This document shows, one piece after another, positions 7,671 to 26,945 of a DNA stretch of 64,000 nt. The notes under the pieces are model-generated. The model saw only the letters and a list, made by a program, of their open reading frames with translations. It ran no database searches and was not told the DNA's origin. Numbering within the stretch: position 1 is the stretch's first letter; every line of letters starts with the position of its first letter. This stretch comes from an uncultured Candidatus Saccharibacteria bacterium. GTDB lineage: Bacteria; Patescibacteriota; Saccharimonadia; Saccharimonadales; JACDBH01. The position numbers were made by a program, and so were the translations under genes. The DNA lies in contig CAZXYN010000001.1 of the NCBI GenBank assembly GCA_964644965.1, positions 139,012-203,011 on the forward strand, read 5' to 3'.

Positions 7671-8140
7671 TGAAAGTTCACGAACTCAAGGCCAACACTC
7701 AAAAAAAAGCTAACCGCGTAGGTCGCGGTATCGCAGCTGGCCAGGGTAAGACCGCTGGACGCGGTACCAAGGGCCAGGGCTCGCGCGCTGGTAAGGGGCG
7801 TCGTCCTGGTTTTGAAGGCGGCCAGAACCCACTAATGCAACGTTTACCAAAACTTCGCGGTTTCCGCAGTTTCAAGACTGCTGCCGAGAATGTTTACACT
7901 GGCAAACTAGCCGAGGTTAAGGGTACCGTCGACAACTTCAGTATCTACGAAGCTGGACTTGTTTCAAGCCCATATGTCCGCGTAAAGCTAGTTGTACGTG
8001 GTGAAGAAATCACCAAGAAACAGACTGTCAAGTTGCAGGCTGCAAGTGCATCAGCAATCGCACAGATCCAGAAGGCTGGTGGTAGTTTCGAAGCTGTACC
8101 TCAGGTAAAGCGTGAATCTAGCAAGCCTAAAAAAGACTAA
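7670..8140 (+). CDS. rplO: 50S ribosomal protein L15
   Basis: MKVHELKANTQKKANRVGRGIAAGQGKTAGRGTKGQ; follows rpsE directly, with no rpmD between them. Confidence 0.9.
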   Translation: MKVHELKANTQKKANRVGRGIAAGQGKTAGRGTKGQGSRAGKGRRPGFEGGQNPLMQRLPKLRGFRSFKTAAENVYTGKLAEVKGTVDNFSIYEAGLVSSPYVRVKLVVRGEEITKKQTVKLQAASASAIAQIQKAGGSFEAVPQVKRESSKPKKD

Positions 8141-8225
8141 GTAATTAGTTTTACAACAAAGATTTTTAGACATTTGGGTAGCGATAAGCTTAAATAAATA
8201 CTGAGATTGTGAGGGTTACTAATAC

Positions 8226-9785
8226 ATGAACTGGAAAATCATTGGCTCGTCCTTAAAAAACGCAGATATGCGTAATCGTATTCTTGCCGTACTTGGCATG
8301 CTACTTGTCTTCCGCATCATGGCTCACATTCCGATTCCTCTGAGCGACCCACAGACCCTCAAAGACGTATTAGAAAACGCCTTTAATGCCTCCCAATCAT
8401 CTCAGCTCGTTAGTTTTATTAATGTGCTATCTGGTGGTGCGCTGGCAAACTTCTCAATCATGCTGGTTGGTATGGGACCATACATTAACGCCAGTATCAT
8501 TATGCAGCTACTGACTCGAGCAATTCCAAAGCTCGAAGCTCTCAACAAAGAAGGCGAATACGGTCGCAAGAAGATAAACCAGTACACCCGCATGCTGACA
8601 TTGCCACTGGCAATCATTCAGTCTGTCGGTATGATCTTCCTCGTCAAGCAAGTTGCTAGTAGCTTCTCTGGTCTTGGTGATATTACCGCCGGGGCAACTA
8701 TCATGCAGTGGGTACTAATGGTAACATCGCTGACCACAGGTGCCATGATTCTGATGTGGCTTGGTGAGCTTATCACCGAAAAGGGCGTCGGAAACGGTAT
8801 CAGCCTGATTATTACCATCGGTATTGTTAGTAGTTTACCATCAACTATTGCTGATATTTTCCGAGCTGTCTACGACCCAGAAAGCCCATGGCGTGTACTG
8901 GGTATAGATATGCCATTTAACCAGACTGCGTTTTATTACGCACTTGGAATTGGATCGATAGTACTGATAACGACTTGGCTGGTGGTGAAAATCAATGAAG
9001 CCCAACGGCAAGTTGTAATTAATTACGCCAAACGTGTCCAAGGTAGCCGTGCATACGGCGGCGTCACAACTATATTGCCGATCAAACTTATTACCGCTGG
9101 TGTGATCCCAATTATCTTCGCTGTGGCGTTCCTGAGTATTCCTAGCTACGCCGGACAAGTTATGTCGGCATCTGACAGTATTCGTCTGCAAGAATGGGGA
9201 GCACAGCTAACCGCTTGGTTCCAAAACCCTAGCGCTCAGACGTTTGCAGTTGGTGGCTGGCAGCCATTCATCTACCCGGCCGTTTACTTCATACTGATCG
9301 TGATGTTTACTTATTTCTACACTGGCATTACGTTCAATAGTAAAGAAATCGCCGAGAACCTACAGAAACAAGGTGGTTTCATTACTGGGGTGCGCGCTGG
9401 TAAGCAAACAGAGATTTACCTCAGCAAGATTGTAAGTAGACTGACGCTATTTGGCTCAATCGCTCTAGGGTTACTTGCATTGACCCCTATCGCTGGACAG
9501 GTGTTCCTACGTACCGATATCGCAATTGGCGGTACCAGTGTACTCATCCTGGTGTCAGTTGCGCTTGAGACGCTACGTGCGGTCGAATCTAGGGCTCTAA
9601 TGGTCACATACGACCAATACAGCGATCCGAGCTTCTTTGGCGGTGATGAGGCCGGAGATGACCCTAAATCCAAGAAAAACTTACGCTCTCGTTTGCGACT
9701 AAAAAGGCCAAACCGCTCAACAGGGAAGCAAAAGTCCGAAAACACTTTACAAACCGTTGTAGGTTCTGCTATAATTAGTAACTGA
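8226..9785 (+). CDS. secY: Preprotein translocase SecY with a ~70 aa C-terminal extension
   Basis: 10-TM SecY sequence (LGMGPYINASIIMQLL...); charged, low-complexity C-terminal tail. Confidence 0.9.
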   Translation: MNWKIIGSSLKNADMRNRILAVLGMLLVFRIMAHIPIPLSDPQTLKDVLENAFNASQSSQLVSFINVLSGGALANFSIMLVGMGPYINASIIMQLLTRAIPKLEALNKEGEYGRKKINQYTRMLTLPLAIIQSVGMIFLVKQVASSFSGLGDITAGATIMQWVLMVTSLTTGAMILMWLGELITEKGVGNGISLIITIGIVSSLPSTIADIFRAVYDPESPWRVLGIDMPFNQTAFYYALGIGSIVLITTWLVVKINEAQRQVVINYAKRVQGSRAYGGVTTILPIKLITAGVIPIIFAVAFLSIPSYAGQVMSASDSIRLQEWGAQLTAWFQNPSAQTFAVGGWQPFIYPAVYFILIVMFTYFYTGITFNSKEIAENLQKQGGFITGVRAGKQTEIYLSKIVSRLTLFGSIALGLLALTPIAGQVFLRTDIAIGGTSVLILVSVALETLRAVESRALMVTYDQYSDPSFFGGDEAGDDPKSKKNLRSRLRLKRPNRSTGKQKSENTLQTVVGSAIISN

Positions 9786-23910: not shown

Positions 23911-23987
23911 GCCGACTTAGCTCAGTTGGTTAGAGCGTCAGTTTTGTAAACTGAATGTCCGGGGTTCGAATCCCCGAGTCGGCTCCA
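23911..23987 (+). tRNA. tRNA-Thr (anticodon TGT), CCA encoded
   Basis: Cloverleaf by hand: acceptor GCCGACT/AGTCGGC, anticodon loop TTTGTAA, T-loop TTCGAAT. Confidence 0.85.
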
Positions 23988-23988
23988 T

Positions 23989-24074
23989 GCAGGGTTAGTG
24001 AAGCGGTCAAACACGTCAGACTGTAAATCTGATGGCTTATGCCTTCGTAGGTTCGAATCCTACACCCTGCACCA
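23989..24074 (+). tRNA. tRNA-Tyr (anticodon GTA) with a long variable arm, CCA encoded
   Basis: Acceptor GCAGGGT/ACCCTGC, anticodon loop CTGTAAA, long variable arm, T-loop TTCGAAT. Confidence 0.85.
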
Positions 24075-25821: not shown

Positions 25822-26172
25822 ATGAGAGATTTGGGAGAGTGCCCTAGATGGCCACGCGAGTGGTATGACGTTTATTGTGAGACGTCTTTGTCAAATGACA
25901 AACTCGCACACTTTGTAGTTGCTGCTGGCGTCGGCAGTGACCCTTCAGTAGAACTCAAACAATACATCACAAGCCCTGCTGTCCGGGTACAAGCAAACGC
26001 AGAAAATTCTACTGAGCAAAAGACAATCGGCGATATGCTTGGTGTGCTTGATCTTTGTAACGTAACCATGGTGAGATTAACTCATAGCGAAGTCCAACAT
26101 CTAGAGCGAATTGGTAAAAATGAAACTTTCTTTAGGCAGTATGCTGACTTAGAGCCTATTGTAGACTCGTAA
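25822..26172 (+). CDS. Hypothetical protein
   Basis: 116 aa ORF, unknown function. Confidence 0.4.
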   Translation: MRDLGECPRWPREWYDVYCETSLSNDKLAHFVVAAGVGSDPSVELKQYITSPAVRVQANAENSTEQKTIGDMLGVLDLCNVTMVRLTHSEVQHLERIGKNETFFRQYADLEPIVDS

Positions 26173-26218
26173 AACAACTGTTTGTTTGATACAATGCCCC
26201 AGTCAAAAGAGGCCTCGT

Positions 26219-26409
26219 GCCGCGATAGCTCAGTGGTAGAGCACCCCGCACCTTATTGAAGTATATTCTTATTGCCGAAGTAGCTCAGTGGTAGAGCATC
26301 GCCATGGTAAGGCGGGGGTCACGGGTTCAATCCCCGTCTTCGGCTCCAATTATTATCATTCTGTAAGGTGCGGGGGAAGGGGTCCTGGGTTCAAATCCCA
26401 GTCGTGGCT
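26219..26409 (+). tRNA. Split or interrupted tRNA-like gene whose 5' and 3' halves flank an embedded tRNA-Thr
   Basis: 5' half GCCGCGA-TAGCTCAGTGGTAGAGC-A-CCCCG... and 3' half ...CGGGG-GAAGGGGTC-CTGGG-TTCAAAT-CCCAG-TCGTGGC-T. The acceptor halves are complementary (GCCGCGA/TCGTGGC) and the T-stems pair. An 11-bp perfect helix CCCCGCACCTT/AAGGTGCGGGG brackets the inserted ~115 nt. Confidence 0.45.
26274..26348 (+). tRNA. tRNA-Thr (anticodon GGT), CCA encoded, nested inside the interrupted tRNA-like gene
   Basis: GCCGAAG-TA-GCTC-AGTGGTA-GAGC-A-TCGCC-ATGGTAA-GGCGG-GGGTC-ACGGG-TTCAATC-CCCGT-CTTCGGC-T-CCA. Confidence 0.85.
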
Positions 26410-26422
26410 TTAGTTTAAAACG

Positions 26423-26447
26423 TAGCGCCAAAAAAGGCGTTTTTTTA
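26423..26447 (+). terminator. Rho-independent terminator after the tRNA locus
   Basis: AGCGCCAAAAAAGGCGTTTTTTTATT. Confidence 0.7.
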
Positions 26448-26483
26448 TTGCTCTTTTCACTGCTACAGCGTAAGATTACAGTA

Positions 26484-26945
26484 ATGAGTCCTCGTGCGGA
26501 GAAACTATATTGTGGAGCGTTCGCTGCAGCTGTTGCTATTGGCGCGCTTGCTGCTAATGAAGTCGTCACAGACCGCCTTGAGGCTGATAACAAACTCCTA
26601 ACTCAAGAAATCAATGATTGCCAAACAATGCCGACTGCAAGCTGCACGGGCGAACTGGGTATTGTCTTGGATCCTACACCCAGAGATTTAGTATTCGAAT
26701 CAGGTACTGTATCGATCAAACCAGAGTATGTATCCGCCCAAATCAACGAAAAGTTACCAAAGCCAATCGACGAATCAGAAAGACGTTCGACTACCGGAAT
26801 AAGCGCATTTTTGTTAGCTGGAGCTGTGTCTTATGGCGCACTCAAACTAAGAGAACCTGTGCGGCAATTTCGGCAAGCTGTTAAGGCGTACAAAGCTAGA
26901 GAATCTCAAGAAAACAATAGCCCGGTTCTGACCCGGGACGCTTGA
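26484..26945 (+). CDS. Hypothetical membrane-anchored protein
   Basis: Start at MSPRAEKLY with an N-terminal TM helix AFAAAVAIGALAA; the track ORF extends upstream to 26448. Confidence 0.4.
   Translation: MSPRAEKLYCGAFAAAVAIGALAANEVVTDRLEADNKLLTQEINDCQTMPTASCTGELGIVLDPTPRDLVFESGTVSIKPEYVSAQINEKLPKPIDESERRSTTGISAFLLAGAVSYGALKLREPVRQFRQAVKAYKARESQENNSPVLTRDA

Follow-up and report, generated by a model that had tools for sequence, protein, structure and literature searches.

How does one complete tRNA gene come to lie inside another, and which of the two serves the cell? The question is raised by a tRNA-Thr(GGU) locus in a 64,000-nucleotide stretch of an uncultured Candidatus Saccharibacteria genome (contig CAZXYN010000001.1; the whole stretch is called the window, and coordinates are positions within it). 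A first-pass annotation had described two tRNA halves at 26219-26409 that bracket a full tRNA-Thr. Sequence comparison makes it fairly probable that a resident tRNA-Thr(GGU) gene was split by an insert with inverted-repeat arms and that the nested copy now acts as the working gene, using the resident promoter and terminator and being freed by RNase P and trimming of the 3' end. On this reading the outer halves would be a relic, and the helix formed by the arms would let the inner tRNA fold in isolation. How the locus is expressed and processed is inferred from this arrangement.

Identity of the interrupted gene

Evidence for two tRNA genes includes both structure and database scores. The outer halves are present as first described, and their acceptor strands GCCGCGA/TCGTGGC pair at seven of seven positions, a G4.U69 wobble included. 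The embedded CCA-bearing tRNA-Thr(GGT) is upheld by ARAGORN and by Rfam (67.7 bits, E=1.7e-14, gathering score 29). It has a full cloverleaf with G1-C72 and C2-G71, a GGU anticodon and an encoded CCA, as expected of a functional tRNA-Thr.

Relatives of the cardiolipin synthase in the window come from Saccharibacteria metagenome-assembled genomes. The comparison with relatives that the first-pass annotation had suggested finds no nest in either of two sister species (contigs L149 and L004, 84-85% cardiolipin-synthase identity): the outer gene is intact in L149, and L004 has a plain tRNA-Thr(GGT). The intact L149 tRNA-Thr(GGT) has an acceptor stem identical to that of the outer gene, down to the G4.U69 wobble. 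The outer halves match the L149 gene at 24/25 positions in the 5' half and 26/30 from the variable loop to the discriminator, and match the inner gene at only 22/25 and 20/30. The plain L004 gene is preceded by a similar -10 box and followed directly by rpmG, which in the window is ~590 bp downstream of the nest. The L004 gene and the outer 3' part also have in common a TTCAAAT T-loop and the 10-mer GGAAGGGGTC. Because the outer halves are closer to these plain genes than to the inner gene, they can be identified as the resident tRNA-Thr(GGT) orthologue.

This identification changes how differences between the two genes are read. Paired changes do distinguish inner from outer gene (acceptor pairs 5-7/66-68, T-stem pairs 49-65 and 50-64), and they had been taken to mean that the outer halves co-evolve as one working molecule. 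That conclusion fails, as the outer version occurs intact in L149; the paired differences are present because two diverged, once-functional Thr genes look like that. Similarly, a recent insertion into a Thr paralog had been among the candidate explanations. The insertion stands, and the interrupted gene is the resident orthologue rather than a paralog.

Relative to an L004-like ancestor, positions 28-38 (most of the anticodon-stem 5' strand and the whole loop) are replaced by a 132-bp insert. If the likeness of the flanks, as read by eye, holds, the insert would be a chunk of a homologous tRNA-Thr locus with new 9-nt inverted ends, CCCCGCACC/GGTGCGGGG. Between the nest and rpmG is a 165-aa open reading frame (ORF) with no Pfam match and no homologue but itself among 5.8 billion proteins; as an orphan matching only itself, it was rejected as a synteny anchor. 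In L004, rpmG comes directly after the tRNA, and the ORF appears to be another insertion specific to the lineage at this site.

Decoding capacity of the outer gene

The first-pass annotation could derive no clean anticodon loop for the outer gene, and a systematic search agrees: no pair of cut sites gives a canonical loop (5-bp stem, 7-nt loop, U33, purine 37 and a Thr anticodon). If GGAAG is taken as the outer 3' stem strand, nothing is left for it to pair with; if CGGGG is taken, every 7-nt loop has A33, not U33, and the variable region is 9 nt. The advised ARAGORN run with intron options (26100-26500) returns the inner gene only and does not call the outer one. Grafting the L004 anticodon arm between the outer halves leads ARAGORN to call tRNA-Thr(GGT), and exact excision of the insert gives no call. 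The outer gene also has TTA in place of the CCA that is encoded in L149, in L004 and in all four of the remaining tRNA genes of the window.

A deletion scan over all pairs of cut sites produced ARAGORN calls for 650 of 1645 constructs, with more than 25 "anticodons" and many abnormal lengths, which shows only the tRNA-like character of the outer body. The Thr(GGT) construct d_26241_26359 was rejected since its cut falls inside the D stem, and further Thr(GGT) deletion constructs were rejected since they take GGT from the 3' arm in a loop without U33. Taken together, the outer gene appears unable to decode and dead as a tRNA, because its 5' anticodon-stem strand, loop and CCA are gone and no cut sites restore them. 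Elsewhere in the window, a tRNA-Thr(TGT) and a tRNA-Tyr(GTA) lie one base apart, and both encode CCA.

Layout of the locus

The gene order is 5' half, inner gene, 3' half (Table 1). The outer 5' half reads GCCGCGA TA GCTC AGTGGTA GAGC A and forms with the inner gene a direct repeat, D1, of 88%. The outer 3' part (26376-26409) consists of GAAGGGGTC, then CTGGG TTCAAAT CCCAG, then TCGTGGC T. In the insert, 75 nt are the inner tRNA gene including CCA, and there is no ORF. The bracketing helix reported earlier is present, with 12 perfect base pairs instead of 11, or 13 counting a U.G pair; complementarity extends over 22-nt arms at 82%. The arms do enclose the tRNA-Thr, at a measured spacing of 108 nt, not ~115 nt. 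Inside them, leader and trailer are partly complementary.

Replacement of the anticodon arm is asymmetric, as the 5' side keeps only C27 and the 3' side keeps GGAAG. The 10-mer at the 3' junction corresponds to positions 39-48 of the intact L004 tRNA-Thr(GGT) and is unpaired in the predicted fold. This fold, for a 192-nt transcript, is a nested double cloverleaf with a minimum energy of -80.4 kcal/mol (z = -4.66). The putative -10 box resembles TTTGATATAAT located 5' of the plain L004 gene; a consensus scan calls no full sigma-70 site in the promoter region of the nest.

Table 1. Features of the nested tRNA-Thr locus and neighbouring elements, with positions in the 64-kb window
Feature	Position	Strand	Basis or remark
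Free-standing HNH endonuclease ORF, 137 aa	23495-23908	+	Pfam HNH 24.4 bits; HNH_3 just below cut-off
tRNA-Thr(TGT)/tRNA-Tyr(GTA) pair	23911-24074		
Promoter-like extended -10 box TGATACAAT (putative)	26187..26195	+	Upstream of the whole nest; read by eye
Outer tRNA-Thr 5' half: acceptor 5' strand, D-arm, position 26	26219..26243	+	Sequence reading; L149 match
Insert 5' arm CCCCGCACCTTA	26244..26255	+	At expected anticodon-stem site; perfect pairing with 26364-26375
Inner-gene leader TTGAAGTATATTCTTATT	26256..26273	+	Aligns with promoter-proximal sequence of plain L149 and L004 genes
Inner complete tRNA-Thr(GGT) with encoded CCA; presumed working gene	26274..26348	+	ARAGORN; Rfam RF00005
Inner-gene trailer ATTATTATCATTCTG	26349..26363	+	By eye like the 3' flank CCAATAACACTTGTAA of the plain L004 gene
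Insert 3' arm TAAGGTGCGGGG	26364..26375	+	Pairs with 26244-26255
GGAAGGGGTC: outer anticodon-stem 3'-strand remnant and variable loop	26375..26384	+	Identical 10-mer in L004
Outer T-arm, acceptor 3' strand, discriminator U; then TTA, not CCA	26385..26409	+	Sequence reading; L149 match
Intrinsic terminator, predicted to close the transcription unit	26424..26447	+	Stem 26424-26441, then T run
ORF, 165 aa	26448-26945	+	Between nest and rpmG

Several observations bear on whether the locus is real. By our estimate, a 12-bp perfect inverted repeat is expected ~1e-3 times in ~190 nt. Two D-arms 22-52 nt apart occur once in the window and in none of 100 shuffles. The identical sequence is found in three Logan assemblies from separate sequencing runs, one of which covers the whole nest, so the nest is not an assembly artefact. 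The other two Logan contigs, L002 and L003, stop inside the nest at 26404 and 26276, which are the end of the outer gene and the start of the inner gene, respectively; strain variation, or branching of the graph at the repeated tRNA segments, may be the cause. A further inverted repeat of 12 nt, 92% complementary (CAGTCAAAAGAG/CTCTTTTCACTG, 26200-26211 and 26451-26462), flanks the nest plus terminator and may be due to chance, ~0.1 being expected by estimate.

A recurrent class of nested tRNA genes

Metagenome contigs were scanned for two copies of the window D-arm 22-52 nt apart, a spacing too short for tandem genes. At least 120 contigs matched, and the same double D-arm pattern had no matches in viral contigs. 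At least 25 further distinct loci have the design seen in the window: outer 5' half, arm, complete tRNA, arm, outer 3' half. Among the matches listed, to which the counts of restorable nests given below also refer, the families found are Val, Thr, Met/Ile-CAU, Ile and Lys. All inner genes scanned with Rfam score 65-78 bits. The inner genes are flanked by inverted repeats with a C-rich 5' arm and a G-rich 3' arm, often ending in CCCG...CGGG, and the core of the window arms, CCCGCAC/GTGCGGG, recurs in Val nests L124 and L147 and in Lys nest L130. No ribozyme family was detected by Rfam in 20 nested loci at the gathering threshold, nor at the window nest with a permissive threshold.

At least one Thr nest lies outside the Saccharibacteria. 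Contig L112 carries a bacterial RNase P RNA, and the best named matches of its LepA are Nealsonbacteria, Wildermuthbacteria and Patescibacteria, indicating a Parcubacteria-type member of the candidate phyla radiation (CPR). With the window in Saccharibacteria, the class therefore spans at least two CPR lineages. In the L112 region at 8090-9701 (reverse-complement coordinates), the nest is 1.4 kb beyond the Gly gene and has CCA on the outer gene alone; in relatives L153 and L155, a tRNA-Gly(CCC) is directly followed by a plain tRNA-Thr(CGT).

Nests differ in whether removal of the insert would restore the outer gene. When 26 distinct complete nests, the window included, were tested, a perfect 7-nt loop carrying the inner-gene anticodon could be regained exactly in nine and not in the other 17. 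The restorable inserts are at 35/36 (L108, L136) or 37/38 (L060, L122) or have a 4-nt junction repeat; the group further includes L061, L141 and the Met nests L082, L115 and L093, the last of which is restorable by eye, failed the automatic test and is counted in the nine. In the non-restorable window, L091, L112, L130 and L099, the helix simply takes the place of the anticodon arm. Where outer loop bases are kept, they fit the inner anticodon or the same amino acid.

Related loci show the outer shells in several states of decay. L099 and L123 are orthologous, with flanks highly similar along the alignment and the same insert, and the outer T-arm of L123 is broken by ~58 nt of insertions relative to L099. 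L143, L088, L062 and L075 keep only a 5' shell. The outer shells thus appear dispensable, given the broken T-arm and the several loci with a 5' shell only. The deepest nesting is in L137 (minus strand, ~100-600), where at least four concentric tRNA-Val shells surround an intact tRNA-Val(CAC) and the outer ones are more decayed. One of its shells is a D-loop insertion with arms CCCTCCCACC/GGTGGGAGGG, and its outermost break is in the D-loop (…ACTCAG/CTTACCCTCCCACC … GGTGGGAGGG/TGAAGCAGAGC). L041 has a D-loop break like this one, CTCAG/CCTGCCCGCCC. Extra shells are also present in L029, L041 and L053. Moreover, the L078 outer gene is similar to the L074 inner gene and the L115 outer gene to the L093 inner gene, a pattern that points to serial gene replacement.

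Two modes of nest formation are suggested by individual loci. L029 and L078 share the insert and outer anticodon stem and differ in the outer acceptor and T arms, as expected from the transfer of a block through recombination in the conserved D-arm and T-arm. In L061, L110, L117 and L141, by comparison, inner and outer genes have the same sequence, and the sequence after the inner gene repeats that after the outer gene for 16 nt in L061 (to the contig end), 42 nt in L141 and ~49 nt in L117. The L141 5' arm is close to the reverse complement of its 3' flank, and the junction shares TATA; this nest fits template switching at a quasi-palindrome, and hence a putative birth in place.

No recurrent nuclease, transposase or integrase was found by ORF clustering within 5 kb around 31 nests. 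By eye, the neighbours are housekeeping genes (FtsH-like, pseudouridine-synthase-like), with a Xer-type recombinase in two related contigs. The HNH ORF of the window ends 3 nt before the tRNA-Thr(TGT)/tRNA-Tyr pair; in L150, where gene order is inverted, there is no HNH gene between the TPR and cardiolipin synthase genes.

The scan also returned related and unrelated structures. In the Thr loci L117, L123, L109 and L144, a hairpin-rich insertion of 30-60 nt occupies the outer T-loop, GGTTC[…GCGCATCCGCCTCTGGCGGAA]ACTCCCAC. L109 and L144 are "empty nests", in which a full tRNA is fused to a D-arm followed by a hairpin, TCCCGAT-GAA-ATCGGGG, and then the 3' half. Other matches are unrelated: a 5' tRNA fragment is repeated dozens of times in long tandem arrays on contigs L030-L032, L034, L036, L037, L040, L125-L140 and others (Ga0224501_*, Ga0224511_*). 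The array unit of 26, 34 or 60 nt is an acceptor 5' strand plus D-arm (GGGATAGCTCAGTGGTAGAGCATTAT...), and some arrays (e.g. L031, L036 and L037) finish with a tRNA-like 3' part. The arrays are a phenomenon distinct from the nests.

Weighing the explanations

In the favored model, one promoter 5' of the outer 5' half and one terminator 3' of the outer 3' half would give a single transcript of ~220 nt that folds as a cloverleaf inside a cloverleaf. The 12-13-bp helix probably separates folding of the inner tRNA from that of the outer halves, which are nearly identical to it. The inner tRNA, freed by RNase P and 3' trimming, would be the working tRNA-Thr(GGU) of the cell, and the outer halves and arms, which have neither anticodon loop nor CCA, would be left over. 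Across the class, a new copy would be inserted into the gene then in use, in some loci more than once, after which the outer shells would decay.

Some observations weigh against this model, mostly from other members of the class. Five outer shells (L074, L078, L085, L091 and L112) have CCA and their inner genes have none. Many outer shells have perfect stems and canonical T-loops, unlike long-dead pseudogenes, and exact restoration works for nine nests. Between L093 and L082/L115, the hairpin in the Met-family inserts differs by paired changes, so RNA-level selection, or even splicing, is possible in some families. In L112 it is the inner gene, not the outer one, that is more like the plain gene of relatives, so "foreign inside native" is not a universal arrangement. 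A second tRNA-Thr(GGU) gene may also exist outside the visible 64 kb. Finally, processing of the inner tRNA and the fate of the outer halves are what we infer for the window.

The restorable nests speak for a rival reading as a working intron, in which the large insert, which also yields the inner tRNA, is cut from the outer tRNA and the exons are ligated by protein enzymes (such as an endonuclease plus RtcB) or by self-splicing. Introns are often closed by a helix, as this insert is, and group I introns occur at 35/36 and 36/37 in Patescibacteria tRNAs including tRNA-Thr(GGU) (PMC13011429). For the window, however, such splicing is very improbable. Whether GGAAG or CGGGG is used as the 3' strand, no cuts yield a loop with U33, purine 37 and an anticodon for Thr, and the outer gene has no CCA. 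A search for a group I core (RF00028 or similar) gave no match over 25900-26700 even at E<=10, nor was any found in the 20 nested loci; Rfam matches at the locus to tmRNA_permuted (E=7.5) and mascRNA (E=0.25) were dismissed as chance. At 132 nt, the insert is shorter than the group I introns known from bacterial tRNAs, which measure 184-894 nt (PMC13011429). At both junctions the helix is flush, and it runs on directly after position 26, so the bulge-helix-bulge motif (two 3-nt bulges, 4-bp helix) is absent in the window. Moreover, restoration fails in 17 of the 26 nests, and relatives have broken shells or have lost them. The large-intron candidate of the first-pass annotation is not sustained on these grounds, and its split-tRNA candidate falls with the unrestorable loop, the lost outer CCA and the unbulged helix.

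A non-decoding role for the outer halves and helix, as a scaffold for RNase P and 3' processing, as a stabilizer of the precursor, or as a two-piece tRNA-like RNA, would account for several structural features. Folding prediction gives the nested cloverleaf as the minimum-energy structure; in L091, L112 and L130, both strands of the anticodon stem are replaced symmetrically by the helix, which keeps a tRNA-like geometry; in most nests the outer stems are well paired, and CCA is retained in several outer genes. Arm pairing is also kept by paired changes, for example GTTAGA/TCTAAC vs GTTGCAA/TTGCAAC in L137, although fresh arms made or imported at each event would be complementary too. We consider such a role unlikely, as orthologues with truncated or interrupted outer shells still have the inner gene and a plain gene suffices in the sister species. 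Least credible is a one-off accident, in which a tandem duplicate decayed or the alleles of two strains were joined into an assembly chimera. Inner and outer genes do have 26-nt and 21-nt direct repeats in common, and two Logan contigs end within the region (26276 and 26404). Yet the order of 5' half, whole gene and 3' half is nested, not tandem, decay of a duplicate does not yield 12-bp perfect arms, three Logan assemblies are identical with one spanning the nest, and the same design occurs in at least 25 other contigs from other metagenome records.

A broader proposal, which we hold tentatively and think somewhat short of an even chance, concerns the class as a whole. In CPR, and perhaps in other bacteria, a complete tRNA gene with short inverted-repeat arms (often CCCG...CGGG) might act as a self-propagating cassette, born by nested duplication in the anticodon loop, spreading into same-isoacceptor genes by D-/T-arm recombination or a trans-acting nuclease, taking over from the working gene at every step and leaving concentric dead shells. 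In a bolder variant, restorable families would make both tRNAs from one transcript by protein-based bacterial tRNA splicing.

Significance

Few genes are as conserved or as well annotated as those for tRNAs, and the interruptions of bacterial tRNA genes in the papers cited here are self-splicing introns and large integrated elements. Nested tRNA genes form a recurrent, structured and apparently undescribed class. Nesting of genes for the same amino acid in the anticodon arm, in layers that reach at least four, would point to a hitherto unknown route of tRNA gene turnover or mobility in reduced CPR genomes. Standard finders overlook the outer halves, as they report the inner gene only. The histories of inner and outer genes may differ, which is relevant to tRNA-based phylogeny, and the restorable nests are ready test substrates for protein-based tRNA splicing in bacteria.

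Comparison with known systems

No description of nested tRNA-in-tRNA genes was found in the open-access full-text literature searched, and the nests resemble several known systems in part. The anticodon loop of Patescibacteria tRNAs can be interrupted by group I introns, among them divergent examples at 36/37 of tRNA-Thr(GGU) (PMC13011429, Nakagawa et al. 2026; bioRxiv 10.1101/2020.01.27.920355, Williams 2020). Excision of such an intron leaves a canonical 7-nt anticodon loop, with U at -1 and G as the final intron base in the usual case. The nests share with them the phylum and gene family, a break in the anticodon region, in some cases the sites 35/36 or 37/38, and the fact that such genes are missed by standard tRNA finders. 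Unlike these introns, the nests have no ribozyme core, the 132-nt insert of the window is mostly a complete tRNA gene, the 5' exons of L108 and L136 end in G or A where U is usual, and the window exons cannot rejoin into a tRNA.

Archaeal bulge-helix-bulge introns and split or permuted tRNAs are similar in that a helix-closed segment interrupts a tRNA gene and another functional RNA may sit inside. For example, an archaeal tRNA-Trp intron holds a C/D box small RNA. The differences are that the nest is in a bacterium, that its helix is continuous without two 3-nt bulges and that the loop is lost. The halves of the nest are in normal order on what would be one transcript, and the cargo is a tRNA of the same isoacceptor. 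A circularly permuted tRNA was rejected because the 3' half is not upstream of the 5' half. A bulge-helix-bulge pairing in the Val family was also rejected, its best drawing having a 3-bp helix, bulges of 2 nt and 5 nt, and an Ile-like loop with G37.

The arms invite comparison with small mobile elements. Terminal inverted repeats (12 bp perfect; 22 nt at 82%) are shared with miniature inverted-repeat transposable elements. There is no target-site duplication at the insert junctions in the window and no further copy of the insert arm sequence elsewhere in its 64 kb. The Val arms GTTAGAC/GTCTAAC resemble core sites of integron attC, a relationship that was rejected because order and polarity are reversed. 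As a source of the arms, the T-arm shows only weak similarity.

Template-switch duplication at quasi-palindromes is a general mutational mechanism. It is matched in L141 and L061, where the inner copy carries the outer 3' flank, the 5' arm is nearly its reverse complement and the junction has a 4-nt repeat, TATA or GATA. It does not explain foreign inner genes as in the window, arm termini that recur across isotypes, or the shell-specific arms of L137.

Integrative elements at tRNA genes are 9-120 kb long, encode an integrase and have one complete and one partial tRNA copy as direct repeats at their ends (bioRxiv 10.1101/2022.07.05.498093, van der Gulik et al. 2022). An attL/attR remnant of such an element was considered for the window and set aside, as there is no kb-sized element, integrase or direct-repeat tRNA remnant, and the orphan 165-aa ORF is the sole novelty nearby. 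The nests differ in an insert of ~130 bp whose only gene is the tRNA, in having both 5' and 3' remnants, and in inverted-repeat ends. Integrative elements are nonetheless the closest parallel in logic, as in both cases the insert disrupts a tRNA gene yet brings a working substitute, and remnants accumulate.

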